Assembly: GCA_038062615.1 (NCBI GenBank) | Contig: JBBTWV010000002.1 | Coordinates: 1 to 56,491 of the forward strand | Reading direction: 5' to 3' | Length of the DNA: 56,491 nt | DNA from: Patescibacteria group bacterium | GTDB lineage: Bacteria; Patescibacteriota; Gracilibacteria; UBA1369; UM-FILTER-53-11 | In this document: in pieces, positions 64 through 47,894 of the stretch | How the letters are laid out: every line of letters starts with the position of its first letter | Position numbering within the stretch: the stretch's first letter is position 1 | Notes under the pieces: model-generated | Seen by the model: the letters and a program-made list of their open reading frames with translations, nothing else | What the model was told of the DNA's origin: nothing | The model's database searches: none | Position numbers and translations under genes: made by a program

Positions 64-99
64 TTGACAGATATGCTAATTTATATTAGCATATCTGTC
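64..99 (+). promoter_or_regulatory. Putative promoter (TTGACA 64-69, 17-nt spacer, TAGCAT 87-92) overlapped by a perfect 15-bp inverted repeat (candidate operator)
   Basis: GACAGATATGCTAAT (66-80) and ATTAGCATATCTGTC (85-99) are exact reverse complements separated by 4 nt. The ATG of the 311-aa ORF lies 9 nt after the -10. Confidence 0.5.
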
Positions 100-101
100 T
101 T

Positions 102-1037
102 ATGCAAAATCTAGCATTACAACCAGGAGCAACAGTGGTTGAGCTCGATCCAGCTCTCTTTGCCGGAGTGGATGGCGATCGAGATAATTTTGATCTTGGT
201 GATTTTGGAGGGCAAGGAGATGATACCGGCGTGGTATTCGACTTACATTCTCCTGGAGAACACGAAGGAACGCCTCTGGTGGCCCATGATCTTGAAACAA
301 TTTTATCGGTATCTCAAATTTTGGATGGAATTAACGCAAGTCTTAATGAGCACCAAGAAGCCCTTCAGGGTGCTTATGCTCAAATGGGTGATGAACTTGG
401 AGTAAAAAGAGCTGAAGTTTTTGCAACTCAGCAATTGTCCGCGCTTCATACTGCCCTTTTGGACTTAAGAAGTTTTGTGCATAAGCTTATACAGGCGGCT
501 CAAGGAAGTCCGCAAGACTTAAGGCCTGGTTCGGCCATGGAATCTCTGGCGCATTTTCAATGTGAGGCCATGAAAATGTCTATTTTCTTAGGTAATAATG
601 GTGCCTCCATTCATCAAGAAGTTTTTAATCTTCCGGAACGTCTACTAAGGGCCGCGCATGAAACGGCTCAGTTACTGAGTGCAGAAAGGGATAATAATAT
701 AGTCATTAATGCGCGACAAGAATTTATTTTCTTTTTGCGGAATACATTCCAGCAATTGAGCAAAGTGGCACTTGCTATAGCGGAAGAACCCCGTATGACG
801 GGAGAAAAAGCCATAAGCATCAACCGCCAATGCGGTATTTTTGCTATGGCGATTATTGATATTTTGGGTGCCTCTCAACTCAGAGGACACGTAAACTTCA
901 TCCCCGAAGCTCATGTAGTCAATCTTAGAGTTGCCGCGGAAAATTTGTTACCGGAAACAAGGCCATGCCTTGAAATGGCAACCATCCTTGGAAAGATAGA
1001 AGCGGTTCAGCGTGCCATCCAAGTTGCCGTTTTCTAA
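102..1037 (+). CDS. Hypothetical protein, acidic N-terminus then helical; no recognisable domain
   Basis: 311-aa ORF with an ATG start and its own promoter-like sequence. It converges on and overlaps the dinG-like gene by 4 nt. Confidence 0.6.
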   Translation: MQNLALQPGATVVELDPALFAGVDGDRDNFDLGDFGGQGDDTGVVFDLHSPGEHEGTPLVAHDLETILSVSQILDGINASLNEHQEALQGAYAQMGDELGVKRAEVFATQQLSALHTALLDLRSFVHKLIQAAQGSPQDLRPGSAMESLAHFQCEAMKMSIFLGNNGASIHQEVFNLPERLLRAAHETAQLLSAERDNNIVINARQEFIFFLRNTFQQLSKVALAIAEEPRMTGEKAISINRQCGIFAMAIIDILGASQLRGHVNFIPEAHVVNLRVAAENLLPETRPCLEMATILGKIEAVQRAIQVAVF

Positions 1038-3349
1038 ATAAAGAATCTACCATACGTCCTGTTTTTCAGCCGGCTGTCTAAAAGGTAGCAGGTTTTTGGT
1101 GTGGAGCTACTGCCCAGTTCTGCTAGGATTTCACGGAACTTGGTGACGGCGCGGGGGAGCGTGTACTGCTCAAAGCCGTTATCAAAAAACTTACTGCGAG
1201 CGCTTAAAATGGGATCATCAGGCGGATCAAAGGGGATTTTTTGAAACACGATCACCTCGAGTTGGTCTTCCACCTCAGGCAGGTGCGGCAGAATTTGGTT
1301 GGTGCTGAGGAGGATGGAGTTTGCCGGATCTTCACAAAAGAGTGCCAAAGATTTTCCCATACCGCCGGATGGACCAATTCCGAGGAGTCGCACATCCAGT
1401 TTTTTCATTTTTGGCGAGAGTGCTTGATACACGGCCTCTACGGCTTTTTTGGAGCTCATAAGGAACAAACTTTTGCCGCGTTTCTGTTCGATAATTTCTA
1501 GAAAAAGTTTAATACAGCGCTTAAAATAGCCCTCGCTGTAGGGGTCCGGAAAATCCTTGGGGATGTGGGTTTGAAGGTTAGACGAGTCCGGCGCTGGCGT
1601 TTCTTTGATTTCTTTCCACGATGAATCAAGCTCTAGAATTTCGCGTATGAGGGCAAAACTTCCGTCGCCGCTTAAGGCAGGACTTTGCAGGACGATATTT
1701 TTAAAGGGCGCTGCGCACTGGTTCCATAATTTTCCAAGAGAAATGGGCGCCGCAGAAAGAGATACTTCATTGGCCCAAGAACTTACCCACTGCACGATAT
1801 TTTCTTGTGGAACGATGGCCGCCAGCAGTTCGTCTTTTTTAGGATGATTGGGGAAATTGGCGAGCGCATCTTGCACGCGTTGCCACGGCACTTCTCGGCG
1901 TGCGGCTTCCGTCAAAAGGGCGTTACCACGGAACCCGCCGCTGTCCACGGAAGAAAAATGCTCGTGAAAAATTCCTAAGAGTCCAAAAAAGAGGGAAGCG
2001 CGATCTCCAAAAATTGGCCGCAAGTCGCTTTCGGTAAAGCGTTTTTTGAGAGCGAAGGTGAGATTGTCTTCAAGCCGGCCGGCGTCTAAAACAATGAGCG
2101 AACGTGGTGTTGGCTCTGTCAGTTTCTCTGCTATTAGGCGTGCCAATCCAAAATGGTGGATGAGAATAATATCTTTGGAGCTGGAATCTTGCAGGGATTT
2201 TTTTACAAAATCGCCCGTGCCTTCGTGGTCCGCAAGCGCATCAAATTTCCCGTATTCCTCGCGCTCTAATGTCAGTTCACTGCGGTCACCCGTAGCGGTT
2301 TCGTCTTTCCAAAGCAGCAGTTTGAGGAGGAATGGAACATCTTCAGCTGGGATTTTCTTGGCGGCCAGCGCTTGTTCTAATTTTTCTGATGAAAGGTAGA
2401 ATTGAGATTCTTTGATCTCACCGATAGAAAGTCCTGCCGCCTGCCTGCCGGTAGGCATGGCCTTTGCCTGCTCCATAATTTGGGTACGCGTGCGCGGCGA
2501 ACTATAAGCAATAATAAGCGGATGATTTTTGAGTTCAGAAAAGGGGATTTGAGACGAGGATTCGAGGAGGATTTTTTCATTATTGAGGAAATTTTTTGTA
2601 ACTTCCTGCGGCCAATAAGGTTTCGCGCAGGCAAGTCCGGTGTGCCCACTCGGGGGCACGGCGTCCTTTGTCCCAGCGGCCAAAGGCGCCTGTGCCTCGG
2701 CTTTGCCAGTCCGCTTCGGCGGACACCATGCTGTCAAAGCCTGCGGCGCTCCCCCTCGGAGCACACACGGACTTGCCTGCGCTTCAAATACCTGTTTCCC
2801 AGCCCAATCACTTTTCGCCAAAATTACTTCCACTTCTTTCCACATTTTTTCCGGAATCTCGCCAATTTTCCCCAGCAAAAATTCAAAAAATTCTACGGTG
2901 GTTTCTGTATCTGCCATGGCACGATGCGAAGGCCTTACTTCCAGCCCGTGCTTTTTCATTAAAACTTCCAGTGCGTACGAGGCTTCTTTCCGCAGCAAAA
3001 TCCGCGCTAAAGAAACGGTGTCAATTTGCGCATTGGGTAAATCAAAATGGCCTCCTCTCAAAAATCCGATATCAAAGGCAATGTTGTGCCCAATAATCGG
3101 CAAATCGCCCATAAATGTCGCAAATTTTTCTTTCACCTCGCTCACCTTTGGCGCGTCCTTCACCATCTCATCGTCAATTCCTGTTAAAAGCTCAACCTCC
3201 TGCGGAATAAGCACCGGTGGCCTTACCAAGCTCTCCAGCCGATCAAGAATTTTCCCGTCCTTCCAAATAAGACAGGCGATTTCCAGGAGGTGATCACGAC
3301 TGGCGTCCAAGCCCGTAGTTTCTGTATCGAGAAATATAAATGGCCCCAT
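1034..3349 (-). CDS. dinG: DnaQ-type 3'-5' exonuclease fused to a DinG/Rad3-like helicase scaffold with degenerate ATPase motifs
   Basis: Exo motifs FLDTETTG, HNIAFDIGFL and HRAMADTETT are in the first ~170 aa. The C-terminus is helicase_C_2-like (VIVFQKIPFDPPDDP). Walker A is replaced by LLESSSQ and DEAH by LDAGR. Confidence 0.8.
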   Translation of the reverse strand: MGPFIFLDTETTGLDASRDHLLEIACLIWKDGKILDRLESLVRPPVLIPQEVELLTGIDDEMVKDAPKVSEVKEKFATFMGDLPIIGHNIAFDIGFLRGGHFDLPNAQIDTVSLARILLRKEASYALEVLMKKHGLEVRPSHRAMADTETTVEFFEFLLGKIGEIPEKMWKEVEVILAKSDWAGKQVFEAQASPCVLRGGAPQALTAWCPPKRTGKAEAQAPLAAGTKDAVPPSGHTGLACAKPYWPQEVTKNFLNNEKILLESSSQIPFSELKNHPLIIAYSSPRTRTQIMEQAKAMPTGRQAAGLSIGEIKESQFYLSSEKLEQALAAKKIPAEDVPFLLKLLLWKDETATGDRSELTLEREEYGKFDALADHEGTGDFVKKSLQDSSSKDIILIHHFGLARLIAEKLTEPTPRSLIVLDAGRLEDNLTFALKKRFTESDLRPIFGDRASLFFGLLGIFHEHFSSVDSGGFRGNALLTEAARREVPWQRVQDALANFPNHPKKDELLAAIVPQENIVQWVSSWANEVSLSAAPISLGKLWNQCAAPFKNIVLQSPALSGDGSFALIREILELDSSWKEIKETPAPDSSNLQTHIPKDFPDPYSEGYFKRCIKLFLEIIEQKRGKSLFLMSSKKAVEAVYQALSPKMKKLDVRLLGIGPSGGMGKSLALFCEDPANSILLSTNQILPHLPEVEDQLEVIVFQKIPFDPPDDPILSARSKFFDNGFEQYTLPRAVTKFREILAELGSSSTPKTCYLLDSRLKNRTYGRFFI
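2625..2782. repeat. 158-bp GC-rich palindromic element with perfect 15-bp terminal inverted repeats, embedded in the dinG-like ORF
   Basis: GCGCAGGCAAGTCCG (2625-2639) is the exact reverse complement of CGGACTTGCCTGCGC (2768-2782). The interior is an imperfect long hairpin that looks much more GC-rich than its flanks. The reading frame stays open. Confidence 0.7.
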
Positions 3350-3432: not shown

Positions 3433-4959
3433 ATGCAAAAAATACCTAAACGACTTGTTTTACCACTCGTAGTACTTTTCATTTTGGCTTTTGGGTCACT
3501 GCCAATTTTGGCCCAGCTGACGGGCTTTATTGATGTTACGGCGGATCATCCCGATTATTCCGCCATCAGCTATTTGCGTGCACGAGGCATTATTAGCGGC
3601 TACGGCGATGGATCATTTAGACCTTCCGGCCAAATTAATCGTGCTGAATTTATAGCCATTGTGGTAAAAGCAAAAAGCGTAAACACAAATACAGGAACCT
3701 ATAAAAATTGTTTTCAAGATGTGAAACAGGAATGGTTTGCCGATGAAGTTTGCTATGCCAAAGCAAAAGGATGGGTCGTCGGCTATGGAAAAGTATTTTA
3801 TCCAGCACTGCCCGTATCGTATGCACAGGCAGCTGCCATCGCGGCCAAAGCTTTTGGTGGCAACGCTCTCAATATTAATAGAGGACAAGCCGCCCAACTG
3901 ATTTACGAAAACATGCCGAAGACAAATCTTCCTGTGCCACCTGCTGCCTATGTTCCTCCGCCCACACCGCCGGCTCCGGCACCAGTTCCGCCAGTTGTGG
4001 TTGTTCCTCCGCCACCACCTCCGGCTCCACCACCACCAGCTCCTGTCACTACATCGGGAGGTTTTCCTGCTCACGTTTTTGCACCGTACGTAGATGTTTT
4101 GCTTGGCGATTTTGATCAATTTAAATTAGCTCAAAATTCAGACAATATCGGTAAATATATGACATTGGCCTTCATTGTGAGCCGAGGTTGTGAAGCGCAC
4201 TGGGGTGGCATTCTCCCATTGAGCGCGGATACTCCACTTTATAATGATATTGCCGCCTTGCGTGCCAAAGGTGGAGACGTGATTATTTCTTTTGGTGGAG
4301 CCAATGGTATTGAACTCGCCCAAGCCTGCAGCACCGATGATGCACTGCTTGCTCAGTATCAAGCCGTGGTCACAAGGTACGCTCTCAAACGAATTGATTT
4401 TGATATTGAAGGTGCCGCCGTGGCAGATCCCACTTCTCGCGAACGCCGAAATCGCGTTTTAGTGAGACTTAAAGCCGCTAATCCGGGTCTCCAAATTCAA
4501 TACACCTTACCGGTTTTGCCAACGGGTCTTACTAACGGCGTAGCGCTTTTACAAGATGCCGCGGCCAAAGGTTTCGTTCCAGATATCGTGAATATTATGG
4601 CGATGGATTACGGAACCTACTTCTCTAACGACATGGGCAAAAACGCCACGGATGCTATTACCGCCACAGTGGCTCAGCTCAAAACTATTTTTACCGGCAA
4701 GACGGATGCTCAACTCAAAGCCATGGTTGGCGTGACACCGATGATCGGCGCCAATGATGTGGCTCCGGAAGTCTTTACTCTAGCGGATGCCACCACGCTC
4801 CTCAACTTTGCCAATCAAAATGGAACGGCCTTTATTGCTATGTGGTCCGCCAATCGCGATAAACAGTGTACGCAGTCTTGGGATGCGCTCTACTTGTGCA
4901 CCAAGATAACTCAGCAGCCATTTGATTTCGCCAAGGTCTTTAAGGCCTTTACGCAGTAG
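3433..4959 (+). CDS. Secreted SLH-domain protein with proline-rich linker and C-terminal GH18 (chitinase/endo-beta-N-acetylglucosaminidase-like) domain
   Basis: N-terminal signal/TM segment. SLH-like motif GIISGYGDGSFRPSGQINRAEF. A PPPPPAPPPP linker. GH18 catalytic DxDxE in RIDFDIEG, plus MAMDYG. Confidence 0.8.
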   Translation: MQKIPKRLVLPLVVLFILAFGSLPILAQLTGFIDVTADHPDYSAISYLRARGIISGYGDGSFRPSGQINRAEFIAIVVKAKSVNTNTGTYKNCFQDVKQEWFADEVCYAKAKGWVVGYGKVFYPALPVSYAQAAAIAAKAFGGNALNINRGQAAQLIYENMPKTNLPVPPAAYVPPPTPPAPAPVPPVVVVPPPPPPAPPPPAPVTTSGGFPAHVFAPYVDVLLGDFDQFKLAQNSDNIGKYMTLAFIVSRGCEAHWGGILPLSADTPLYNDIAALRAKGGDVIISFGGANGIELAQACSTDDALLAQYQAVVTRYALKRIDFDIEGAAVADPTSRERRNRVLVRLKAANPGLQIQYTLPVLPTGLTNGVALLQDAAAKGFVPDIVNIMAMDYGTYFSNDMGKNATDAITATVAQLKTIFTGKTDAQLKAMVGVTPMIGANDVAPEVFTLADATTLLNFANQNGTAFIAMWSANRDKQCTQSWDALYLCTKITQQPFDFAKVFKAFTQ

Positions 4960-4967
4960 GACGTATA

Positions 4968-5782: not shown

Positions 5783-6730
5783 CTAGAACTTTACCTCTAA
5801 AAGCGCCACTTCTGGTGGCACCAAGAGCCTGGCTCGCGGCCCCATCTCTCCAGCGCCGCTGGTAATAAAGAGCTGCGTTTTTCCAAATGCAAAAAGTCCG
5901 CGGTCGTATTTTCTACCTAACTCATCGGGAATTGGTGGCACTGATCCAAGAAATGGCAGACGAATCTGCCCGCCATGCGTGTGTCCCGCTAGCACCAAAT
6001 CAATCTCTTCGCTTTGCGCCTGGATGACAAGATCCGGATTGTGAGTTACCAAGATGCTGGGGTGTGGAATTTTATTTAAATGAAAAGACTCCAATGCTTG
6101 TTCAATGTTGGCTCGTTTTGTCCAAAGTTCATCCGTTCCAAGCAAGAAAATATCCTTACTGCCTTTGTGAATTTTTACGCCTTCATTGATGAGGATTTTA
6201 ATTCCCATGGAAGTGAGCGTACTTCTCACGGTGCTGGCTCGTACATCTGCCGGTGCGCCAGTTACAACCTCGTGATCCCCATAATCATGATTTCCCATGA
6301 TCGCAAAAACTCCATACGGCGCCTGGAGTTTTTTGAGTGGCGCTAAATATTCCGTTTGATTCTGATTATCATAAACAAAATCACCGGCCAGTAAAATAAT
6401 ATCCGGCTTCAGCGAAAGCGTTTTGGCCACGACCTTCTCAATGTAGTCCGCTTTTTTATAAGGGCCAACGTGCAAATCGGAGATCAATGCCACGCTTAAT
6501 GTCTCCGTCGGAGCTGAGCCCAGTTTAATTTCTTCTCTGGCAACCAAAAGCAGACGCGGTTCAATAAAACTTCCATAAAAAATCACGAGCCACGCCAAGA
6601 GAGCAAGCACCAGCCAGCCTTTATAAAACCACAACCTTTGCCAGCCATCCCAGAACTGCAGGGCCACCAACATGCCAACCCCATCGGCTGTTAAAAACGC
6701 GATGATGAGGGCGTCAAATAAATAATTCAT
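5783..6730 (-). CDS. Membrane-anchored calcineurin-like metallophosphoesterase
   Basis: Two N-terminal TM helices followed by the motifs DLHVGP, GDFV, GNHD and GHTHGG. Confidence 0.8.
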   Translation of the reverse strand: MNYLFDALIIAFLTADGVGMLVALQFWDGWQRLWFYKGWLVLALLAWLVIFYGSFIEPRLLLVAREEIKLGSAPTETLSVALISDLHVGPYKKADYIEKVVAKTLSLKPDIILLAGDFVYDNQNQTEYLAPLKKLQAPYGVFAIMGNHDYGDHEVVTGAPADVRASTVRSTLTSMGIKILINEGVKIHKGSKDIFLLGTDELWTKRANIEQALESFHLNKIPHPSILVTHNPDLVIQAQSEEIDLVLAGHTHGGQIRLPFLGSVPPIPDELGRKYDRGLFAFGKTQLFITSGAGEMGPRARLLVPPEVALLEVKF

Positions 6731-9203: not shown

Positions 9204-9851
9204 CTATTGTTTGAAAGCCCCCAGGCCTTTAAGGCTGGCAATCGGAGCACCTTCGCAATAAGCGCTGTAGCCCTTGAGCGTCACCGCAACCGGATTTTTT
9301 TCAGAAGCCTTCTTGAGCTTTGCTTCCAAATCCGCCGGGACATCTACCACTCGCAGAGTTTTATTAAACTCAGGGTAGGTGGAGACAAGATTTTGCAAAG
9401 GAAGCTCTTTTACATCTTCGGCAATAACCTTCAACATCCATGTTTCTGTTCCTTCTACATAAGCTGCTTCCCAGACATACCATCCGCGAACCGTTGCCTC
9501 TCCTGCAAATGTGGGTTTTGAACAGGTGTCTTCCACGTCACCACTCACCAGCTTCCATTTTTGGTTTATCGTAGGCTTTGAAGTTTCGCTGGTATCAGTA
9601 TTACCGGCTTCGGGCTCGTCTTTCTCCTCTTGCTTGGCAGTGGCATTTTGTTGAAGAGTGAGGACTTGCTGCTTGAGTGATGCAACTTGAGACTGAAGCG
9701 TCGTACTCATTTTTTCCTGTTCACTCTGTTGCCAGAGGTAGACGGCACCTGCTGCAAAACTTCCACCAAGAAGAACGGCCAGTATTACGAAAATGCCAAA
9801 TTTTAGAGATTTTGATTCGGACGGAGCGGGGCTAAGCGGAGCTGGATCCAT
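9204..9851 (-). CDS. Hypothetical membrane-anchored protein with coiled-coil segment
   Basis: 215-aa ORF with a TM helix (FGIFVILAVLLGGSFAAGAVYLW) followed by a Q/L-rich heptad region. Confidence 0.6.
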   Translation of the reverse strand: MDPAPLSPAPSESKSLKFGIFVILAVLLGGSFAAGAVYLWQQSEQEKMSTTLQSQVASLKQQVLTLQQNATAKQEEKDEPEAGNTDTSETSKPTINQKWKLVSGDVEDTCSKPTFAGEATVRGWYVWEAAYVEGTETWMLKVIAEDVKELPLQNLVSTYPEFNKTLRVVDVPADLEAKLKKASEKNPVAVTLKGYSAYCEGAPIASLKGLGAFKQ

Positions 9852-9879
9852 AAATTTGGATTATGAATAAAAGGTTATT

Positions 9880-10953
9880 TTAAAGCATTTTAATGAATTC
9901 ATCAAACAAGAAGCCAGTATCGGCAGGGCCGGGAGTGGCTTCTGGATGAAACTGCACGGCCATGAAAGGAAGTTTTTTATGACGAATGCCTTCCACGGTT
10001 CCGTCATTGAGATTTTCCATCCAAACTACCCAGCCTTTTGGCAGCGTATTGGCCTTCACCGCAAAACCGTGATTTTGAGAGGTCAAGTAACAGCGTTTTG
10101 TTTGGACGTCTATCACGGGTTGATTCTGAGCGCGATGTCCATATTTAAGTTTGAAGGTTTTGGCGCCTGCGGCAATCGCCATAATTTGGATGCCGAGGCA
10201 GATGCCAAACGTGGGGATTTTTTTGGCGAGGGATTGTCTTACAATTTCATGAGTGGCGTGGAGCATAGCGGGATTTCCTGGTCCGTTAGCAATGAAAACG
10301 CCATCAAATTTAAATTTGGACTTCCAAATATCATAATTCCACGGCACGCGAATAAAGGTTACGTCGCGTTCCAAAAAACTTCGCACGATGTTATTTTTCA
10401 TGCCGGTATCAATGGCGATAATGCGTTTTTTCCCTCTGCCCTCGTTGTAGACAATAGGTTTTTTAATAGAGACCTGCTCCACCAAATTTTCTTCATTGGG
10501 ATCTTGAATTTCTTTTGCCGGCGTCTTGCCGTTTTGTACAATCTGGCCCAGCATGACGCCGTGCTCCCGGAGTTTTTGCGTTAACGCACGCGTATCTACG
10601 CCCGTTAGCCCGGGAATATTGTACTGCTCCATCCATTTACTCAGGCTGCGTTTGGCGTTCCAGTGGTGATACTCATCGCAATATTCCGAGACAATGAGCC
10701 CGCGAACTTGAATCTCATTACTCTCAAAATGTTTTTTGATCTTCCACTGGTCGCGAGAATCATCCGGCACGCCGTAATTGCCCACCAGCGGATAGGTGAA
10801 TACCAAGATTTGTCCTTTATAAGAAGGATCGGTAAGGCTCTCCGGGTAGCCCACCATGCCGGTATTAAAAACAACTTCTCCCTCGGCACCCGTGAGTGCG
10901 CCGAATGATTTTCCTTCAAATGTTGTGCCGTCCTTAAGAATCAAACGAGCCAT
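9880..10953 (-). CDS. carA: Carbamoyl-phosphate synthase small (glutaminase) subunit
   Basis: GEVVFNTGMVGYPESLTDPSYKGQILVFTYPLVGNYGVP, with the GATase triad context GICLG ... HGF ... FHPE. Confidence 0.9.
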   Translation of the reverse strand: MARLILKDGTTFEGKSFGALTGAEGEVVFNTGMVGYPESLTDPSYKGQILVFTYPLVGNYGVPDDSRDQWKIKKHFESNEIQVRGLIVSEYCDEYHHWNAKRSLSKWMEQYNIPGLTGVDTRALTQKLREHGVMLGQIVQNGKTPAKEIQDPNEENLVEQVSIKKPIVYNEGRGKKRIIAIDTGMKNNIVRSFLERDVTFIRVPWNYDIWKSKFKFDGVFIANGPGNPAMLHATHEIVRQSLAKKIPTFGICLGIQIMAIAAGAKTFKLKYGHRAQNQPVIDVQTKRCYLTSQNHGFAVKANTLPKGWVVWMENLNDGTVEGIRHKKLPFMAVQFHPEATPGPADTGFLFDEFIKML

Positions 10954-11006: not shown

Positions 11007-11936
11007 ATGGATTTTAAAGGCGCTGACATCTTAAGTGCCAAACAGTTTAATCGGGGTGATATTGAAGCGGTGCTGAAAATGGCTAAAAAGATGGAGCCGT
11101 TTGCCACCAAGCAAAAGTGGGGCGATTTGCTGAAGGGAAAGCTGTTGGCGTCGCTTTTTTATGAACCTTCTACGCGCACGCGCATGTCTTTTGAGACGGC
11201 CATGCAGCGGCTGGGCGGAAGGGTGGTTTCTGCCGTGGGGATGCAGTTTTCTTCTCTTACCAAGGGCGAAACTTTATATGACACGGGCAAAATTGTGGAA
11301 AATTATGCGGACGTCATTGTTATGCGGCACCCAGATGATTTTGCCGCGGAAAAATTGGCGGTTGGTGCCAACGTGCCGGTAATGAACGCGGGTGATGGCA
11401 GCAATGAGCATCCAACACAGTCGCTTTTGGATCTTTATACCATCGAAAAGGAGATAGGGAAGATTGATGGCCTCACCATTTCCATGGTGGGGGATTTAAA
11501 GTTTGGCCGCACGGTGCATTCGCTTTCTACCATGCTTTCTCATTTTGATACGCAGCTGATTTTTGTCTCTCCTCCGGAACTTAAAATGCCGGAGTCAGTG
11601 TGCCGCCTTTTAAAGGAGAAAAATATTAAGTACCGCGAAACAGAAGACATGAGCGAGGCTATGAAGAGCTCGCAAGTCCTTTATATGACGCGCATTCAGC
11701 AAGAGCGGTTTACGGATATGAAGGAGTACGAAAAACACCGGAATCGTTATGTGCTCACGCGCGATTTGATTGAAGAAAAAAATCCCAAGCTCGTGGTGAT
11801 GCATCCGCTGCCGCGCATTTGGGAAATTCAGCAGGATGTGGATCAGGTAGCTGGCGCCGCTTATTTTAGGCAGATTCCCAATGGCGTTGCGGTGAGGATG
11901 GCGCTATTGGCGTTGGTTTTGGGAAAAAATCCTTAA
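11007..11936 (+). CDS. pyrB: Aspartate carbamoyltransferase catalytic subunit
   Basis: STRTR, HPTQ and HPLPR motifs. The tracked ORF begins at a TTG (10953) that overlaps the carA start. The first ATG at 11007 (MDFKGADIL) is the more likely start. Confidence 0.9.
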   Translation: MDFKGADILSAKQFNRGDIEAVLKMAKKMEPFATKQKWGDLLKGKLLASLFYEPSTRTRMSFETAMQRLGGRVVSAVGMQFSSLTKGETLYDTGKIVENYADVIVMRHPDDFAAEKLAVGANVPVMNAGDGSNEHPTQSLLDLYTIEKEIGKIDGLTISMVGDLKFGRTVHSLSTMLSHFDTQLIFVSPPELKMPESVCRLLKEKNIKYRETEDMSEAMKSSQVLYMTRIQQERFTDMKEYEKHRNRYVLTRDLIEEKNPKLVVMHPLPRIWEIQQDVDQVAGAAYFRQIPNGVAVRMALLALVLGKNP

Positions 11937-15955: not shown

Positions 15956-17773
15956 CTATTTTCTCTTTCTACGCTTTTTTTCCAAAGCAAGCTGGTCTTC
16001 TTGTTCTCTTCTGCGAATTTCTGCCCACGCTTCACTCGCTATTCCCTCTATTGGGAGCCTATCACCACGATTAATATGGGAATTACTAGAAAATCGGTAA
16101 CTCACCCTATTAAGTTCTTCCATAGTGAGATGGGTTTCAATAATATGGGTTTCCCAAAGATGATAGGCAACCGGAAAACTTCGCGTCCTCAAGAGTACAC
16201 CTAAAAGTGTCTTGTCAGCCTCCTCATCTGAATTTGCACAAGCTCTGATTCTGGCAACCGTGTTATCTATAAAAACGTTGTCGTGGTAACCGTCTGCCAA
16301 TTCTGCGGCAAGGTCGCGAGTTTTTTGCCATCCTCGTTCTTGGGCTTCTCGTCTCTGCACATCTTTGTGAGCTTCAAGAGATTTTGCGCGTCTTTGCAAA
16401 ATACTCGTAACATCTAATCCTCTTGCTCCACATGCTGTAACTGCTTCTTGCACAACACGTTCACTCGCCGCATACCGAGCGATTTCCGGCAACAATTCAT
16501 TCGTCAAAACGGCAGGGTAAATATTTTGAAGCACCATCCAAACCACTTCGCATGTTTCATCATCATCGCAATCTGCAAAAAAACTTTTCAGCATATGCAA
16601 ATTATCGGCACCTTGGCCAGTACACTCTATAATGGTGCCTAAAAGGTCGCACGCGGTAGCAGGGTGAGTAGCACGGATGAATTGTTTTACCAAGAAAGCA
16701 AGATGTATACCGGCATGTTCTGCGGTAGCATTTGCATACAATCTTCTGTTGATTGCCATATCATAATCAAAGGTCGGTTCGGTTCTTATTCTTTCGGCAC
16801 GGGCAAGGATAAAACTTCGGTAAACTGGAGATGCATCTCTCAAAACTCTTGTAACTTCCCTTTTACCGGTTCTCACTAATGCAGCACTTTTACTCACTGC
16901 CGCAACAGCTCTGTCGCCGGTATCATCCGCAACTGTCATAATATGAGGCGTTTCATCTGGAGCATCTCCCGGAGGATCCAGTCCCTGTTCGTAAAAACTT
17001 TCTTGGTAAGCAACCTCATCTTGCAAAGCTAAAAGATCTTTAAGCCGTGGAAAGTCCTGCATGTCACTGCCAACTTTTCTCAAAATTTGTTCGCCAACCT
17101 CTCTTTGTTCCTCATCAGGAAGTTGGAATTTATATTGTACTTTAATGGTGCCAAGTCTAGGACTCTCACCCAAATTGAGCGTTTCTTCAATCTCTTTCAA
17201 TAAATCAACAAATGCTTGAATCAGACGCTCTTCAAAATCTCTTCCTGGGGCTTTAGATTCCATGAGCATTCCCATGCTTATAACTGCCTGCGGAGGAACA
17301 GAAGTGTCACGTTTTACTGTTACCAGTTCTACAAATTTTGCTGGTATGGCGGTGGCTAAATCGCCTGCTTGGCGCTCACCGATGATATTGATAAGTTTTT
17401 CCAGAGTTATAATATCGTGTGTGGACAATACTTTCCCCCCTCTTTTGTCCCATTCAACCGTTTCGGTTTTTTCCATGGGTAAATGGAGTATCTCGCTTAT
17501 AGCGTAGTGTCCAGCAAGTTCACTGAACACAACACCATAATCAATTATGAGTAAGTCTATTTTTCGCATGGTTTCTCTATATGCCTCTAAAGAAGTCGGA
17601 TGTTTTTTTTGCTGTGCAACGAGTACTTGTATCTTGGTGGTAATTTCAACAATATTGCGGAGTGCCAGCATTAAGTACTCCAGCAGCAGTTGGAGCCGGT
17701 CGGGTATCTGATTTTCAAAAATGACTAAACGAGTCGCTCCAGATGGCGGGCTTTTATCGAGGCTTTTTCCCAT
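15956..17773 (-). CDS. Orphan 605-aa protein, cassette copy 1 (paralog of 21073-22731); function unknown
   Basis: Long ORF with a leaderless-type promoter. It shares conserved blocks with its paralog (TVEWDK, QAFVDLLK, YQESF, LHMLK.FF, ETCE.VW, FIDNTVARIRAC). I recognise no known catalytic motif. Confidence 0.75.
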   Translation of the reverse strand: MGKSLDKSPPSGATRLVIFENQIPDRLQLLLEYLMLALRNIVEITTKIQVLVAQQKKHPTSLEAYRETMRKIDLLIIDYGVVFSELAGHYAISEILHLPMEKTETVEWDKRGGKVLSTHDIITLEKLINIIGERQAGDLATAIPAKFVELVTVKRDTSVPPQAVISMGMLMESKAPGRDFEERLIQAFVDLLKEIEETLNLGESPRLGTIKVQYKFQLPDEEQREVGEQILRKVGSDMQDFPRLKDLLALQDEVAYQESFYEQGLDPPGDAPDETPHIMTVADDTGDRAVAAVSKSAALVRTGKREVTRVLRDASPVYRSFILARAERIRTEPTFDYDMAINRRLYANATAEHAGIHLAFLVKQFIRATHPATACDLLGTIIECTGQGADNLHMLKSFFADCDDDETCEVVWMVLQNIYPAVLTNELLPEIARYAASERVVQEAVTACGARGLDVTSILQRRAKSLEAHKDVQRREAQERGWQKTRDLAAELADGYHDNVFIDNTVARIRACANSDEEADKTLLGVLLRTRSFPVAYHLWETHIIETHLTMEELNRVSYRFSSNSHINRGDRLPIEGIASEAWAEIRRREQEDQLALEKKRRKRK

Positions 17774-17917
17774 AGGGTGTATTAAACACTAAATTGGCTA
17801 ATTAGTCAACTGGTCGTTTAACCTGTTAAATCTCGTCAAAATAGATCACCTGTGCAGAATTTATTGACGCTCAAACGCATAAGGGAGTAACATAAGGGTG
17901 TAATATTATTACACCCT
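17774..17917. promoter_or_regulatory. Divergent promoter/operator region of cassette copy 1
   Basis: Minus strand: TTGACT (17809-17804), 17 nt, TTTAAT (17786-17781), 7 nt, ATG. AGGG(T/A)GTAA-like motif at 17774-17783, 17882-17891 and 17895-17904, and inverted at 17908-17917. The last two form a 10-bp perfect palindrome that abuts the RHH ATG. Confidence 0.55.
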
Positions 17918-18253
17918 ATGAAGACCCCTTACCGTAAAAAAGTAAAATCAAAATACGCTATTAAGCTGAAGCATATTCCCGTTCTGCCTCCGCTTGGGTC
18001 GGGGTTGTTGTTAGGTAAGAAAGGGCCGCGCAAAAAAGTAAATTTCATGGTGGATCTCAATATTTTAGAAGGCATGAAAATTTTTGTGCCTTTTGGAGAT
18101 AGAAGCGACTTTGTGAATGATGCGGTGGCTTATGCGCTCAAAAAGGCTGCTCAGCGAGAAGCCATGGAATTTATGGATAAAGTTCGGAAAGAAGGGAAGT
18201 TACAGATGACCGACAAGGAGATTAAAGAAGCGATTAATTATGGCCGAAAATAA
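17918..18253 (+). CDS. Ribbon-helix-helix (CopG/VapB-like) antitoxin, copy 1
   Basis: RHH signature KKVNFMVDLNILEGM...GDRSDFVNDAVAYAL. Overlaps the downstream PIN gene by 14 nt. Confidence 0.8.
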   Translation: MKTPYRKKVKSKYAIKLKHIPVLPPLGSGLLLGKKGPRKKVNFMVDLNILEGMKIFVPFGDRSDFVNDAVAYALKKAAQREAMEFMDKVRKEGKLQMTDKEIKEAINYGRK

Positions 18254-18680
18254 ATCTCTCTTCGTCGTAGATGCCTCGGTTCTTTTGAAGTGGTATCTCA
18301 AAGAAGAAAATGATCAAGAACCCGCTTTGCAGCTGCAAACAGACTACCACTACGATAAGATTTCTCTCGCGATTCCGCACTATGCTTGGTCGGAGGTATT
18401 GAATACATTGGGAAGAAAAAAATCCTTTGATGAAGTACTTGCCTATTTTTCGCGTTATTTAGCCTTTGAAATACAGGAATATTCCATCACGCTTGAAATT
18501 GCAGCCGTGGCCATTGAACTTATGGAAAAGTTCCCTAATATAACCTTTTACGATGCCGGTTATCATGCTTTGGCGCTCCAAGAAGGAGGTACTTTTGTAA
18601 CCGCTGATGAAAAATATTTCCAAAAAACAAAAAAGCATGGCGGCATCATGCTCTTGAAAGACTACGGCAAGAAACGCTAG
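18240..18680 (+). CDS. vapC: PIN-domain (VapC-like) toxin, copy 1
   Basis: LFVVDASVLLKW, FYDAGYHALA and TADEKY supply the acidic PIN residues. 146 aa, translationally coupled to the RHH gene. Confidence 0.85.
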   Translation: MAENKSLFVVDASVLLKWYLKEENDQEPALQLQTDYHYDKISLAIPHYAWSEVLNTLGRKKSFDEVLAYFSRYLAFEIQEYSITLEIAAVAIELMEKFPNITFYDAGYHALALQEGGTFVTADEKYFQKTKKHGGIMLLKDYGKKR

Positions 18681-21072: not shown

Positions 21073-22731
21073 TCAGGAAGCTTTTGGCTTTCGCCTGTCA
21101 ATTTCCGCACTTGCTTCTTTCCATATCTCATCGCACGGATGCTTACCACCCCAAGGATTAAATCTTTCTGTGACTTTATCAAGTTCTTCATCGCTCATGT
21201 GTGATTCAATGATATGCTTTGACCACAAATACCAGGCCGTGTACAGGTTGGTATGCAGCAATACATTTACAAGAATTTTTCTGGCTTCTTCCTCGGAAGT
21301 TGTGCAAGCCCTTATTCTTGCCACCGTGTTATCAATGAATTTTCCGTCAGGTTCCTTGTCCCTCAACTCGGCGGTAAGGTCGCGAATTTTTTTATAATTT
21401 CTATCTCGAGCTTCCTGGCTCTTAACCTCACGGTGTGCCACAAGTGATCCTGCACGTTTTTCTAAAATGCTCTCGGCGTCCAGTCCTCTTGTCCGACATT
21501 CGGCGATGGCGGCCTGGGCAACGCGATCGCTCGTGGTATATAGGGCTATCTCTGCCAACAGCTCGTTCGTCAAAACAGGCTCATAATTTTGCAATTCATC
21601 CCAGACTGCCTCACACGTTTCTAGATCTTCACACCAAACAAAGAAAGTTTTTAGCATGTGCAGAAAGTCCGTGCCTTCATCAAAAGATTCCATGATCATG
21701 TGGAGGAGCGCACATGCGGAATAGGCATGGGTCGCGGCATGGAACTGGTCTACTAAGAATGTCCGATGTAAGCCTACATGCTCCTCGGTTGCTGTGGCAT
21801 GCCATTCTCTCGCTACTCCTCGATAATAATCAAAGGTGATTTCAGTTCTGATGCTTTGTGCACGGGCTAACATGAACCTTTGATATGGAGGAGATACGGC
21901 GGCGAGCACTTCAAGGACTTGTCTTCTCCCATGATTCACCAAGGCAGAGCTTTTATCCACAACCGCAAGAGCGCTCTCGCCAACTCCTTCCGTCATGGAT
22001 GCAATATCGGCGGTTTCATAAGTGGGCTCCGCAGGAGGTTCCATCCCTTGCTCCAAAAAACTTTCCTGGTAGGTAAGGCTATCTCTCAAATCCAAAAGAT
22101 CGCCTATCCTTGGAAATTCCTCAGTATTGCTACCAACTTTTTGTAAAATTCTTTCGGCAACGCGTCTTCGCTCATCATCATCCATTTTAAATTTATAGCG
22201 CGTTTCTATAATTCCTATCGCCGGTCTCCTACTATGGAGGTTGTTCTCAATCTGCTTGAGTAAATCAACAAATGCTTGAGTGAGCCGTTCCGCAAAATCT
22301 TTTTCTGGAGTGTAAGGTTTCATATCCATATCGGTGGATAGTGGTCTAAGCTTTTGGCGGTGCACAGCCAAGTCCACAAAGTCTTGCGGTGCATGGACCG
22401 TAAGGTTGGAAACCTGCTGCTCACTTATTAATTTCAAAACAGTTCCGATAGTTGAAATATCTTTTGTAGATATTACTTTTTCGCCTATTTTGTCCCATTC
22501 AACGGTTCGAATTTCTTCCATTTGCAAATTCAGTATTTCGCCAACAGCGTAATGTCCCACCAGCATGCTCATTTCGAGGCTATAATCAGCTATTAGGTTA
22601 TTAATTTCCAATATGGTTTTTTGATATGCAGTTAAGGTAGTTGGGTGTTCTCTTTGCTCTGTTACAAGTTTTTGTGCGGTCGTAGAGATTTCGATGAGTT
22701 TTCTCATCCCTCTTATTAAATAATTCAGCAA
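21073..22731 (-). CDS. Orphan protein, cassette copy 2 (paralog of 15956-17773), N-terminally disrupted by a frameshift
   Basis: 552-aa ORF from an internal TTG. The homologous ATG is at 22781 in another frame. One extra C in the C5 run (22755-22759) would restore MDKPSGETPQIPDKLEPLLNYL, which aligns with copy 1. Confidence 0.7.
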   Translation of the reverse strand: MLNYLIRGMRKLIEISTTAQKLVTEQREHPTTLTAYQKTILEINNLIADYSLEMSMLVGHYAVGEILNLQMEEIRTVEWDKIGEKVISTKDISTIGTVLKLISEQQVSNLTVHAPQDFVDLAVHRQKLRPLSTDMDMKPYTPEKDFAERLTQAFVDLLKQIENNLHSRRPAIGIIETRYKFKMDDDERRRVAERILQKVGSNTEEFPRIGDLLDLRDSLTYQESFLEQGMEPPAEPTYETADIASMTEGVGESALAVVDKSSALVNHGRRQVLEVLAAVSPPYQRFMLARAQSIRTEITFDYYRGVAREWHATATEEHVGLHRTFLVDQFHAATHAYSACALLHMIMESFDEGTDFLHMLKTFFVWCEDLETCEAVWDELQNYEPVLTNELLAEIALYTTSDRVAQAAIAECRTRGLDAESILEKRAGSLVAHREVKSQEARDRNYKKIRDLTAELRDKEPDGKFIDNTVARIRACTTSEEEARKILVNVLLHTNLYTAWYLWSKHIIESHMSDEELDKVTERFNPWGGKHPCDEIWKEASAEIDRRKPKAS

Positions 22732-22781
22732 TGGCTCAAGCTTGTCTGGGATTTGGGGGTTTCACCAGATGGCTTGTCCAT

Positions 22782-22935
22782 AAGGTGCATATTAAACACT
22801 AAATTAACAGATAAGTCAACAGGTTCGTAACCTGTTATGTCTGATGGTAGGTTTTAAAACTGGGTTGGCGACTCAGAATCAATTGATGTTCAAAATCGTA
22901 TGGAGTAACATAAGGGTGTAACAATCTTACTCCCT
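22782..22935. promoter_or_regulatory. Divergent promoter/operator region of cassette copy 2
   Basis: Conserved TTGACT (22819-22814), 17 nt, TTTAAT (22796-22791). Operator-like motifs at 22902-22909 and 22913-22922, and inverted at 22926-22935. Confidence 0.5.
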
Positions 22936-23268
22936 ATGAACACCCCCCGCAAAAAAGTAAAAGCCAAATACGCTATCAAACTCAAACATTTTCCTGTTTG
23001 TCCTCAATTTGGATCTGCGTTTTTTGGCTCAGGGAAAAGACCTCGGAAGAAAGTAAATTTTATGGTGAATATGGATCTTTTGGAAGCCATAACATTTTTG
23101 GTCCCTTCGGGTAGCAGGAGCGAATTTGTAAATGAAGCCGTGGAAGAAGCTCTCAGGGATTTTGCCCGAAGAAAAGCAATAGAGGCGATGGATGAATTTC
23201 GTAGGAAAAATAAATGGAAAATGACGGACGAAGAAATTCGTAAAGCTATCAATTATGGTCGCAAATAG
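22936..23268 (+). CDS. Ribbon-helix-helix (CopG/VapB-like) antitoxin, copy 2
   Basis: Paralog of 17918-18253 (KKVNFMVNMDLLEAI...GSRSEFVNEAVEEAL). Intact. Confidence 0.8.
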   Translation: MNTPRKKVKAKYAIKLKHFPVCPQFGSAFFGSGKRPRKKVNFMVNMDLLEAITFLVPSGSRSEFVNEAVEEALRDFARRKAIEAMDEFRRKNKWKMTDEEIRKAINYGRK

Positions 23269-23695
23269 GCCGCTCTTCATTGTTGATGCCTCTGTGATTT
23301 TAAAGTGGTTCCTCTTTGAGCCGGATTCCCAGGAACAGTCACTCCATCTCCGGCGAGATTATTTTGAGAGGAAGGTGGAGCTAGCTGTTCTTAACTATAC
23401 TTATGCTGAAATTTTGAATACTTTAGGGCGAATTCTCCCCCAAGAGAAAGCGCTTTCGGCCTTTTCTCAGCTGTTGATGTATCAATTGCAGTAATACCAT
23501 ACCACTATGGAATTAGCTTCGATGGGTTGCGAACTCATGAAGAATTTTTCTGGTGTCACCTTTTATGATTCTGGTTATCATGCCTTGGCTCTACAGGAAG
23601 GTGGCACATTTATAACCGCCGATGAAAAATATTTCCAAAAAACAAAGAAACAAGGCGGGGTAATGCTCTTGAAAGACTACGGCAAGAAACGCTAG
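23255..23695 (+). pseudogene. vapC: PIN-domain toxin, copy 2, interrupted by an in-frame TAA at 23492-23494
   Basis: The two ORFs 23255-23494 and 23507-23695 are in the same frame and align collinearly with copy 1. The TAA aligns with GAA (Glu) of copy 1. Confidence 0.75.
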
Positions 23696-32865: not shown

Positions 32866-33480
32866 TTAACGTTTACTGAATTGAGGTGCGCGGCGTGCTC
32901 GTTTAAGACCGTACTTCTTGCGTTCTTTAATGCGGGAATCTCGAGTCAAAAAGCCCATTGGCTTAAGCGTGGTTCTTAAATTACTGTCATGTTCCAAAAG
33001 AGCTTTGGAGACGCCATGACGAACCGCTTCGGCTTGGGAGTGAATGCCTCCACCATGGACTTGGACCACAATGTCAAAAGTTTTGAGAGTGTTGGCCATG
33101 CGCAGCGGCGCCATAATCTTGTCTTGATCCGTAAAAACCGGGAAGTAGTTTTCAAATGTACGTCCATTAATGGTAATGACACCCTTTCCATTCTGGTAAA
33201 GTCTCACACCGGCAACGGATGTTTTTCGTTTACCGTTAGCGTAAAAATACGTTCCGCTCCGTTTTGGAATAATGCCTTGGTGAACCTCTTCTTTTTTGGG
33301 CGAAGCGGATGGCACATTAGAAGCATCTTCAAACGAAGCAACGGTTTTAATAATTTGTGGGGTTTTTTTAGTCGCAACTGCTTTAGCCGGCGCCTTTGGA
33401 GCTGCCTTTTTTACCGGTGGTTTTTTTGTGACTTCCTTTGCCACTGCCGGTTTTGCTTTCTTTGCTGGGGTTTTAGCCAT
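32866..33480 (-). CDS. rpsI: 30S ribosomal protein S9 with ~70-aa Lys/Ala/Pro-rich N-terminal extension
   Basis: C-terminal GGGIHSQAEAVRHGVSKAL...RDSRIKERKKYGLKRARRAPQFSKR. Confidence 0.9.
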   Translation of the reverse strand: MAKTPAKKAKPAVAKEVTKKPPVKKAAPKAPAKAVATKKTPQIIKTVASFEDASNVPSASPKKEEVHQGIIPKRSGTYFYANGKRKTSVAGVRLYQNGKGVITINGRTFENYFPVFTDQDKIMAPLRMANTLKTFDIVVQVHGGGIHSQAEAVRHGVSKALLEHDSNLRTTLKPMGFLTRDSRIKERKKYGLKRARRAPQFSKR

Positions 33481-35994: not shown

Positions 35995-36522
35995 CTAGAC
36001 GCGGCGTGCCTTACGAGGACGGCAGCCATTGTGAGCAATAGCTGTTTTATCACTAATAGTTTCAATAGAAACTCCAGAAGCACTTACGGCTCTTACCGCT
36101 TGGTCGCGTCCGGATCCCGTGCCTTTTACAGAAACATGAACTCGTTCCACGCCTAATGCCTTGGCTTTTGTAAGCGCTGTTTCAGCTGCCACCGAAGCAG
36201 CATAAGGCGTCGCTTTTCTCGTGCCTTTAAATCCGCATGAACCCGAAGATGCCCAGCAGACCACATTCCCATTCATCTCAGTCACCGTTACAATCGTATT
36301 GTTGTAACTGGCCTGAACCGTAACCATAGCCTCGGTAAGGCTATGCTTTTTGGACTTCTTCTTGCGCTTCTTGGCACCAGCTTCATCCTCGCCGCTTGCT
36401 CGGTTTGATGCCTGAGCATCATCGCCTCCTTCGGCTGCAGCACCTTCCGTGGTTGCGGATGGCGCATCTTTTGCAGGGGCATCAGCTGGAGCAACACTTG
36501 GTTTTTTGGGTTCTTCTGCCAT
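35995..36522 (-). CDS. rpsK: 30S ribosomal protein S11 with ~50-aa Ala/Glu/Lys-rich N-terminal extension
   Basis: Core VQASYNNTIVTVTEMNGNVVCWASSGSCGFKGTRKATPYAA... Confidence 0.9.
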   Translation of the reverse strand: MAEEPKKPSVAPADAPAKDAPSATTEGAAAEGGDDAQASNRASGEDEAGAKKRKKKSKKHSLTEAMVTVQASYNNTIVTVTEMNGNVVCWASSGSCGFKGTRKATPYAASVAAETALTKAKALGVERVHVSVKGTGSGRDQAVRAVSASGVSIETISDKTAIAHNGCRPRKARRV

Positions 36523-41535: not shown

Positions 41536-41883
41536 TCAGAACACAAGGCCGCCTTCACGTGCGCCATCGGCGAGTGCTTTTACGCGACCATGATATTTAT
41601 AGCCGTTTCGATCAAATACACAAGTTTTTACGCCTTTTTCGAGAGCCTTTTTAGCCAGTTCCATACCGACTTTTTTAGCACGCTCGGTCTTGGTGCCTTG
41701 CTTAATGAAAGCACTATCGCTCGCAGCAGCAACCACAAGCCCTTTGGCATCGTTCACTAATTGAGCGTAATTTTTCTTAAGACTTCGGAAAACCACGAGC
41801 CGCGGACGAGTTTCTGAGCCTTCTATGCGGGCACGGATTCGGATGTGTCTTCTTTCGCGTTTGAGGAACTTCTTATTGTTCAT
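41536..41883 (-). CDS. rplR: 50S ribosomal protein L18
   Basis: MNNKKFLKRERRHIRIRARIEGSETRPRLVVFRS... The tracked start at 41961 reads through repeat C1. Confidence 0.9.
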   Translation of the reverse strand: MNNKKFLKRERRHIRIRARIEGSETRPRLVVFRSLKKNYAQLVNDAKGLVVAAASDSAFIKQGTKTERAKKVGMELAKKALEKGVKTCVFDRNGYKYHGRVKALADGAREGGLVF

Positions 41884-41961
41884 AATGTTTACGCTCGTCT
41901 GCGCTCGAACCGGCAAAGCCGGATTCTCGCTTGCCTCGCGGCGCCGCTGTGCGGCGCTCAT
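41884..41961 (-). repeat. Family C structured repeat (C1), abutting the rplR start codon
   Basis: AATGTTTACGCTCG...CCGGCAAAGCCGG...GCGCCGCTGTGCGGCGCTCAT aligns with 55789-55868. Confidence 0.7.
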
Positions 41962-43754: not shown

Positions 43755-43767
43755 AAGGGATTTAAAT

Positions 43768-47886: not shown

Positions 47887-47894
47887 AGAGATGG

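Follow-up and report, generated by a model that had tools for sequence, protein, structure and literature searches.

A 158-nt palindromic element, similar to Rickettsia palindromic elements (RPEs) and miniature transposable elements with inverted repeats (MITEs), lies in frame in the inter-domain linker of a DinG-like gene of a Patescibacteria group bacterium. It occurs in a subclade of Peregrinibacteria, is translated through and is conserved as nucleic acid. The element was studied in a stretch of 56,491 nt (positions 1 to 56,491 of contig JBBTWV010000002.1, GenBank assembly GCA_038062615.1), referred to below as the window, where it occupies positions 2625–2782 on the minus strand, corresponding to codons 190–242 of the gene. 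Its conserved part is the fold of one strand, in which a closing stem of approximately 25 bp contains a bulged T and is combined with CGAG/CGAG-type internal loops and two inner hairpins. Two layers of selection are thereby superimposed in one stretch of DNA, an apparently neutral protein layer and a conserved nucleic-acid layer.

Structure of the element and its place in the host gene

The first-pass annotation of the window described a GC-rich segment with perfect 15-bp inverted termini, and this description is accurate. Positions 2625–2639 (GCGCAGGCAAGTCCG) and 2768–2782 (CGGACTTGCCTGCGC) are complementary in all 15 of 15 nt and are separated by a 128-nt spacer. The GC content of the element, calculated over 120 nt, equals 0.70 compared to 0.46 for the whole window (70% vs 46%). 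The folding energies were set against 200 dinucleotide shuffles, as the annotation had proposed, and none of the shuffles matched the element on any strand tested, the z-scores being between −7.4 and −7.9. The energies were −58.1 kcal/mol for the plus strand as DNA (z = −7.4), −105.5 kcal/mol for the RNA in the gene sense (z = −7.5) and −101 kcal/mol for the antisense RNA (z = −7.9). In a sliding 160-nt scan of the window the element is the top structural outlier. The fetched DNA, 2.49 Mb in total, contains 52 perfect inverted repeats with a length of 13 bp or more and a spacing of 60–230 nt; the lowest folding energies per nucleotide among them belong to the window element and its orthologue from locus L002.

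The interior had been described as imperfectly self-complementary. It is so far beyond chance, but on the gene-sense strand it is branched and does not form one continuous palindrome; rather, it consists of a stem, an internal loop and two hairpins. Polarity of the element was defined by the strand carrying the CGAG motifs (potential tandem G·A pairs), which in the window is the gene-sense, i.e. minus, strand; all features of the fold are given on this strand. The 15-bp closing stem P1a is formed by the 5’ arm GCGCAGGCAAGTCCG (2768–2782) and the 3’ arm CGGACTTGCCTGCGC (2625–2639). It is followed by a single bulged T (2767), which L002 and L007 share in the same position and L166 has on the opposite strand, and by the 9-bp stem P1b, where the 5’ arm GTGTGCTCC (2758–2766) is paired with the 3’ arm GTGGGCACAC (2640–2649). 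Then there is a 2×2 internal loop CGAG/CGAG, one side of which occupies positions 2755–2758 and the other, 2649–2652, and a short G5/C5 helix leading to the junction with two hairpins. A third CGAG is located at the junction (2696–2699). The inner hairpin P3 (2699–2741) has the arms GGCTTTG and CAAAGCC around GTCCGC-CGAA-GCGGAC and differs from that of L002 by five compensatory pairs. The inner hairpin P4 (2660–2690), formed by GGCGCCTTTG and CAAAGGACGCC, has four compensatory pairs relative to L002 and an identical GCTG loop.

The element resembles none of the structured RNAs that were searched for. With Rfam 15, the window yielded no matches at gathering thresholds, and the region around the element, scanned with E-values up to 10, gave two chance-level matches (E from 6 to 9). 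ARAGORN found no tRNA or tmRNA. A promoter and terminator scan gave no terminator, and the promoter-like matches were at the chance level. Two other candidate roles were rejected. A 150-nt profile suggested a GC-skew switch at the element, but there is no kilobase-scale replichore signal in the window, L002 or L004. An integron attC site, considered by eye only, would have the reverse arrangement, as on either strand the 5’ arm contains GTT and the 3’ arm contains AAC, and the element is also intragenic.

The host gene (1034–3349, minus strand) encodes a protein of 771 aa with an N-terminal DnaQ/RNase_T exonuclease domain and a C-terminal DinG-like helicase fold. Pfam assigns RNase_T to residues 5–155 and Helicase_C_2 to residues 617–768, while NCBIfam yields partial matches to DnaQ-exonuclease/DinG models that score well under the equivalog cut-offs. 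The placement of the element in frame between the exonuclease domain and the helicase-like region, proposed at the first pass, was thus corroborated. The element constitutes the entire linker, from the conserved F-E (gene nt 562–567) to approximately 10 nt before a conserved W codon. The AlphaFold2 model of the protein, built with a 23-sequence alignment, has a mean predicted local distance difference test score (pLDDT) of 85 and a predicted template modelling score (pTM) of 0.82. The only long stretch of low confidence in it, residues 194–239 with pLDDT 23–46, is the element. The 53 encoded residues are therefore predicted by this model to form a disordered surface loop between two confidently folded domains. 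In the helicase-like half, Pfam finds only Helicase_C_2, and the region corresponding to Walker A of relatives (AGTGTGKT in L011, GVGTGKY in L012) reads LLESSSQIPF in the subfamily of the window protein (window 1034–2620). This half is probably ATPase-dead though confidently folded.

The gene frame contains no stop codon within the element, as had been noted at the first pass. Taken alone this is weak evidence, since five of the six frames of the window element are free of stops. However, the gene frame is open in seven of the seven orthologous elements compared to 14 of 35 for the other frames, and with the latter frequency the chance of seven open gene frames is about 0.4^7, or roughly 0.002. 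Hence we conclude that the element is translated through and not skipped. Moreover, the ribosome must read through it, because no separate start codon is available to the downstream domain, which continues in the gene frame.

Fold conservation and polarity among orthologues

DNA of 20 orthologues was fetched for comparison. The nearest proteins are encoded in metagenome-assembled genomes (MAGs) of Candidatus Peregrinibacteria, and the protein P0001 contains the identical 53 residues (local phmmer, E = 6e-26). A copy of the gene that is 99.8% identical, with an identical element, is present in the independent assembly GCA_964364405.1, and homologous elements at the same site occur in assemblies from NCBI, ENA, JGI and Logan. 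Nothing specific speaks for an assembly or chimera artefact apart from the metagenome-type source of the sequence, and we consider it practically excluded given the identical element in the independent assembly.

In all orthologues, both the length and the sequence of the linker between the exonuclease and helicase domains are hypervariable. In the bearers, the element starts right after the conserved F-E, at gene nt 566–571 (588 in L004, or about 579 by eye), and in the window, L002 and L007 it ends approximately 10 nt before the conserved W codon. The length of the element is 158 nt in the window and L001, 203 nt in L002 (GCA_016186205.1; 17-bp perfect termini, z = −10.2), 183 nt in L007, 171 nt in L167, 180 nt in L166 and 148 nt in L004, where the perfect 14-bp outer stem is AT-rich. 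L168 carries a 96-nt element with a weaker fold, and L173, a 60-nt mini version. For the elements of six orthologues the z-scores range from −7 to −10. The sequences of the terminal stems differ completely between species.

Other orthologues have no element. Loci L169, L087, L088, L089, L172, L174, L175, L008 and L009, as well as all relatives from Peribacteria and Chloroflexi, have unrelated unstructured linkers of approximately 30 aa. The non-bearers have a Lys/Glu-rich linker, no remnant of which was found beside the element in the bearers. Hence the first-pass suggestion of an insertion relative to orthologues holds for the distant and several of the close ones, but several other orthologues carry a homologous element. 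A homologous linker in orthologues had been named as an observation that would speak against the suggestion; it does occur in some of them, but its conserved part is the nucleic-acid fold and not the peptide. In the bootstrapped neighbor-joining tree, P0016 lacks the element and is the sister of the bearer P0008 (bootstrap support 78%). P0011 (54%) and P0007 (33% or less), poorly supported neighbors of bearers, lack it as well. One gain followed by losses is indistinguishable from several gains, because the deep branches of the tree are unresolved. Two features of non-bearers may be mentioned here. In L169 (P0007), a short tandem repeat GAGGGCTGAGGGCAGAGGGCTGAGGGCAGAGGG is located at gene nt ~525–565, where relatives carry the palindrome. 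The dinG-like gene of L016 from Peribacteria contains at nt ~760–810 a short GC-rich insert encoding RDAPQQGCPLGG, seen relative to the near-identical L014 and L015 and located at a different position of the protein.

The elements of the window and of L002, the orthologue that aligns best with it, are colinear after a 39-nt extra hairpin of L002 is taken out. RNAalifold predicts 55 pairs for their alignment, 25 of which are changed on both sides, one is changed on one side, and none is broken. In an explicit count, 100% of the cells are paired with 25 compensatory pairs, compared to 36.5–41% paired cells and 0–4 compensatory pairs in control structures shifted by 1–3 columns. None of 500 shuffles attained the observed pairing and compensation. 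Synonymous sites are saturated between these two genes (proportion of synonymous differences, pS, 0.75), yet 55% of the element columns are identical.

The close pair L007 and L167 allows for estimation of substitution rates. The ratio of nonsynonymous to synonymous rates (dN/dS) is 0.91 in the element, with dS of 0.27, and 0.08 in the rest of the gene, with dS of 0.81. Judging from this one pair, the element evolves approximately three times slower than synonymous sites elsewhere in the gene, and its peptide appears to be neutral, without amino-acid constraint. The three outermost pairs have changed from AAA/TTT to GGC/GCC between the two loci. One-sided changes lean weakly towards G·U on the gene-sense strand (six vs one). 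On the whole, G·U pairs make up 2–5% of pairs in the elements, about equally on both strands, and the more stably folding strand varies among orthologues. Conservation extends to unpaired features, namely the bulged T, the loops with CGAG and the GCTG loop in P4. As the fold is maintained while the peptide drifts, selection acts on DNA or RNA and not on the protein. Such selection is beyond what the analogy with RPEs alone explains.

The polarity of the element relative to the gene is not constant. On the gene-sense strand, the numbers of CGAG and CTCG motifs are 3 and 0 in the window, 7 and 1 in L002, 5 and 1 in L168, 2 and 1 in L007, and 1 and 0 in L167; in L004 and L166 they are 0 and 4, and 0 and 1, respectively. 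The purine content of the elements agrees with the polarity assigned from the motif counts. Loops of the G·A type are formed by the gene-sense strand in the window, in L002 (twice; CGAG/CGAG), and in L007 and L167 (CGAAG/CGAAG, CGCAG/CGAG). In L168, CGAG occurs mainly on the gene-sense strand and the predicted fold has no such loop. In L004 and L166 the loops are on the antisense strand (CGAG/CGAG and CGAA/TGAG, respectively), and the sense strand there reads CTCG/CTTCG and CTCA/TTCG. A covariance model of the element (R1), run with filters off, ranked the dinG-linker site at or near the top of its matches in L166, L167, L007 and L004, with weak scores (E from 8.8e-5 to 1.1); L166 scored 35.7 bits on the minus strand vs 13.2 bits on the plus strand, and L004 matched on the minus strand only.

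Thus the polarity appears to be reversed relative to the gene in two lineages, L004 and L166. P0003 (L004) and P0004 (L002) are sisters with 100% bootstrap support and have opposite polarity; therefore the flip or replacement postdates their split. The interior may have been inverted through recombination between the inverted arms. Reversal in two lineages suggests that the constraint is on the DNA or its single-stranded form and not on the host mRNA.

Explanations for the conserved palindrome

The explanation that we place first, while holding it with about as much doubt as confidence, is that the element is a hairpin repeat like those of the RPE, MITE and REPIN type (REPINs are hairpin-forming doublets of REP (repetitive extragenic palindromic) sequences), with the fold kept as its recognised part, tolerated in the disordered linker and occasionally flipped or lost. 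A hairpin-dependent repeat of this kind would be recognised and maintained through its single-stranded fold, as with REPINs or hairpins of the insertion sequence (IS) 200 type. It would have entered, or replaced, the hypervariable linker, where an insertion is harmless, and would then have been inherited vertically, sometimes flipping via recombination between the inverted arms and sometimes being lost. We rank it first because of the reversed polarity, the patchy distribution near the bearers, and a palindromic insertion located 1.6 kb away in L002. The latter, termed E2, is a different element at positions 12361–12516 of L002, just after the dinG-like gene, with the termini TTATTCTGGGG/CCCCAGAATAA and a minimum free energy as RNA of −92.2 kcal/mol (z = −8.0). 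Its apparent insertion point is immediately ahead of the ancestral stop codon (…TTT ATT | element | TAA…), where it provides a new TAA and adds two residues; the orthologous site of the sister L004 is empty. Both E2 and the dinG element of L002 contain CCGAGCGAG/GAGCGAGG. Hence at least one palindromic repeat in these genomes, E2, looks like a recent, lineage-specific insertion.

A number of observations weigh against the hairpin-repeat explanation, foremost the copy number. The search for other copies of the 15-bp termini, which the first-pass annotation had suggested for the genome, covered the window only and yielded none with up to three mismatches. Searches by blastn and nhmmer with every element against 2.46 Mb of related loci (about 135 kb of them from close relatives) produced no second copy. 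R1 with default filters recovered only its own training sequences from 0.62 Mb. With filters off, it gave a second copy neither in the window nor in six close loci; owing to over-fitting of the model, its negatives elsewhere are soft. The in-frame peptide, run in an exhaustive HMMER search of 1.84 billion representative proteins, matched three unrelated repeat proteins only. No transposase was found among the 30 open reading frames (ORFs) of the window. The flanking direct repeats are inconsistent, being GAA/GAA in the window and at most TA/TA in L002, where TA prolongs the inverted repeat as well; they are absent from L007 and L166. The terminal stems, wholly different between species, are unlike the terminal inverted repeats recognised by transposases. 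The reversal in L166 is moderately supported, with the global alignments nearly tied. Finally, a non-autonomous fixed relic would be expected to decay neutrally, yet the element is conserved. This excludes a decaying relic of one old insertion and fits better with a host-level function or constant replacement from unseen master copies. With no second copy seen in the window and the related loci, the element may belong to a low-copy family or may be unique in its genome, uniqueness having been listed by the first-pass annotation with what would speak against its reading; mobility as a multi-copy repeat is thus hypothetical. Phage and plasmid collections contained no match to the element, and pattern scans of viral contigs yielded two chance matches in high-GC coding DNA and none for the element.

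The strongest competitor, a serious one though less likely than not in our estimate, is a locus-specific functional nucleic-acid structure maintained by selection on the host, that is, an RNA or single-stranded DNA module within the coding region. Its possible roles are a processing, binding or regulatory site for the expression of the gene, a substrate or landing site of the exonuclease/helicase-like enzyme that the gene encodes, or a replication hairpin. It is ranked second because of the single-copy status of the element in the window and related loci, the identical junctions in all bearers, and purifying selection on nucleotides, manifested by a substitution rate three times below that of synonymous sites at dN/dS of about 0.9. 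It also agrees with the 25 compensatory and no broken pairs, with the conserved unpaired bulged T, CGAG loops and P4 GCTG loop, and with the six vs one excess of one-sided changes towards G·U on the sense strand in L007 and L167. On the other hand, a role in mRNA would not tolerate the reversed polarity in L004 and, probably, L166. The patchy distribution (P0016, P0011 and P0007 have no element), the lack of an Rfam family at E-values up to 10 and of promoter or terminator signals, the rarity of G·U pairs, about equal on both strands, and the varying identity of the better-folding strand also argue against such a structure. A narrower version, a functional single-stranded module under host selection that works in either orientation, acting as DNA or as an independent RNA, seems to us doubtful. 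As DNA, it could be a hairpin linked to replication or repair, or a binding site or substrate of the very enzyme whose gene it interrupts.

Complementarity could also be maintained without any function if quasi-palindromes arose in an unconstrained linker and were perfected there, during replication, by intrastrand template switching or conversion between the arms. Such a neutral mutational by-product would account for nearly all pairs being Watson–Crick with few G·U on either strand, for both strands folding about equally well, and for the hypervariability of the linker in all orthologues; that such repeats can arise is illustrated by an unrelated 18-bp perfect inverted repeat in a conserved domain encoded in L088. 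We nevertheless consider it improbable. Arm conversion leaves the substitution rate unlowered, yet the element evolves about three times slower than synonymous sites; CGAG opposite CGAG is retained instead of being homogenised into Watson–Crick pairs; and the window and L002 have colinear branched architectures despite saturation of synonymous sites. Removal or skipping of the segment, as an intron-like sequence, a translational bypass or an intervening sequence excised by RNase III, is still far less probable. Translational bypass elements are known from gene 60 of phage T4 and from yeast mitochondria (‘byps’), and the window element has a very stable hairpin (−105 kcal/mol as RNA) with GAA on both sides. 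However, the gene frame is open in all seven elements while other frames contain stops, the length of 158 nt is not a multiple of three, and resumption at the 3’ GAA would be out of frame and meet an apparent stop within approximately 15 codons (by eye). There is no match to intron or ribozyme families and no start codon after the element. The constraint on the reading frame excludes removal from the mRNA.

If the element is selfish, it provides a model for long persistence of hairpin repeats at a fixed site. If it is functional, it represents a rare structured DNA or RNA module within a bacterial ORF and, should the functional module prove true, structured elements of a ‘coding-embedded’ kind would form a new class in the candidate phyla radiation (CPR). 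In either case, in-frame palindromic inserts, so far regarded as a peculiarity of Rickettsia and a few MITE families, are extended to the CPR. A practical consequence for CPR genomes is that protein alignments and domain annotation become inflated and distorted where such inserts occur.

Other palindromic repeats and comparison with known systems

The window contains three small families of GC-rich hairpins, denoted A, B and C, two of which are located directly upstream of start codons of ribosomal-protein genes. Family A comprises two hairpin leaders of about 85 nt (55781–55868 and 41876–41961, minus-strand sense) that end directly at the ATG of two genes, the S7-like gene and another minus-strand member of the ribosomal-protein cluster. 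The copies are 81% identical, contain CGAG/CGAG loops and have a compensatory change in the central hairpin (CTGGC/GCCAG vs CCGGC/GCCGG). Their 32-nt core is 91% identical to E2 of L002, and weak matches are found in L004, directly upstream of a DUF4015 gene, and in L002, within the corresponding intergenic spacer. Family A could be a conserved 5’-leader element; it has no Rfam match. A link between family A and the dinG element is not claimed, as they share only the 10-mer GAGCGCCGCA and, by eye, GCAARGCCGAG, and the nhmmer comparison was not significant. Family B consists of leaders of about 85 nt (TGTCATTGCGAG ... CTCGCAAGGACA) at 47884–47966 and 51049–51132, upstream of the L2-like and S10-like start codons, respectively. 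Identity between the copies is 80%, the inner hairpin is compensatory, and the dinG element of L168 opens with the same 11-mer, GTCATTGCGAG. Family C has two to three copies (45028–45088, 43766–43825 and 28625–28666) formed by two adjacent GC-rich hairpins, GCGCCC...GGGCGC and GGCTTAGCCGTCG...CGACGGCTAAGCC.

Several further features were observed. A perfect 15-bp AT-rich hairpin with a 4-nt loop, GACAGATATGCTAAT/ATTAGCATATCTGTC, at window positions 66–99 directly upstream of the ORF 102–1037, is a possible operator or terminator. Two paralogous stretches, each of about 2.4 kb (16218–18680 and 21284–23695, 63% identity) each hold a large ORF without Pfam matches (15956–17773 and 21073–22731). 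Other GC peaks of the window (41311–41430, 46659–46778 and 3930–4049) are low-complexity coding tracts rich in Gly, Pro and Ala, not palindromes, and the S9-like (32866–33480) and S11-like (35995–36522) proteins have N-terminal extensions of about 82 and 66 residues, respectively, before the Pfam domain. In L088, an intergenic 102-nt palindrome (4866–4967) has 17-bp perfect AT-rich termini and a GC-rich inner hairpin, and the above-mentioned 18-bp perfect inverted repeat (11721–11831) is located in a conserved transketolase-type C-terminal domain (by eye), its arms encoding VGGLAG and SGKTAD. Three strongly folding palindromic elements are found within 10 kb in L034, an Anaerolineae MAG (826–988, 5996–6217 and 9744–9936); they are probably a true multi-copy MITE family of that Chloroflexi genome.

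The first-pass annotation likened the dinG element to RPEs and noted that such behaviour was not known to be described for this kind of genome; likewise, we found no description of such elements for CPR bacteria in the literature that we consulted. RPEs are palindromic inserts located in frame within Rickettsia genes that encode proteins (Ogata et al. 2000/2002, via the summaries in PMC1779305 and PMC10969869). They form interspersed families with tens of copies per genome, both genic and intergenic (PMC1779305). The likeness includes the size of about 100–150 bp and the palindromic structure (158 nt and z of about −7.5 here), location in frame in housekeeping genes with translation as an extra surface segment, the sharing of the insert by the orthologues of a clade (all Rickettsia, for instance, have the RPE-7-like insert in pheT), and the absence of classical transposon hallmarks. 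The insert is also compatible with the protein fold, the gene frame being open in seven of seven elements and the loop predicted to be disordered. Thus the resemblance is sound with respect to the in-frame, palindromic and translated-through character, but the interspersed multi-copy property was not found in the window and 2.46 Mb of related loci. Further, RPEs are recognised by sequence, with hidden Markov models, and have conserved peptides, whereas the window-type elements keep only the fold, and even orthologous copies share little sequence, so that assignment to RPE-1 to RPE-10 does not apply. The host phylum (Patescibacteria/CPR) is unrelated to Rickettsiales, the window element exceeds the genome in GC content and folds into a branched structure with G·A loops, and the polarity is reversed between sister lineages. 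Given the other phylum, the absence of a sequence family and no demonstrated multiplicity, we consider the element an analogue of RPEs and not a member of them.

With MITEs such as ERIC, BOX, Correia, QMITE1 and those of Anabaena, the element shares terminal inverted repeats, a length of 100–200 bp, a stable transcript hairpin and occasional in-frame fusion with host ORFs (PMC10969869). It differs from them in several respects: the sequence of its termini is not kept from species to species, no target-site duplication recurs consistently, neither a cognate IS nor a transposase was seen among the 30 window ORFs, and the copy number is apparently one. The system of REPINs and REP-associated tyrosine transposases (RAYTs) offers a parallel in the hairpin-forming inverted doublet of about 100 nt with a predicted single-stranded DNA or mRNA fold, as well as in long vertical inheritance, selection on the hairpin unit and strand-specific features (PMC3116915, PMC3337134). 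However, REPINs are extragenic, number hundreds of copies, carry a conserved REP core and depend on a RAYT gene, none of which was seen for the window element: it is intragenic, single-copy in the data and has no cross-species core, and the window encodes no Y1 transposase.

GC clusters and ‘byp’ elements of yeast mitochondria are likewise GC-rich palindromic mobile inserts in protein genes of lower-GC genomes. These are organellar; byps are passed over by the ribosome and can do without the reading frame, whereas the window-type elements keep the frame in every orthologue.

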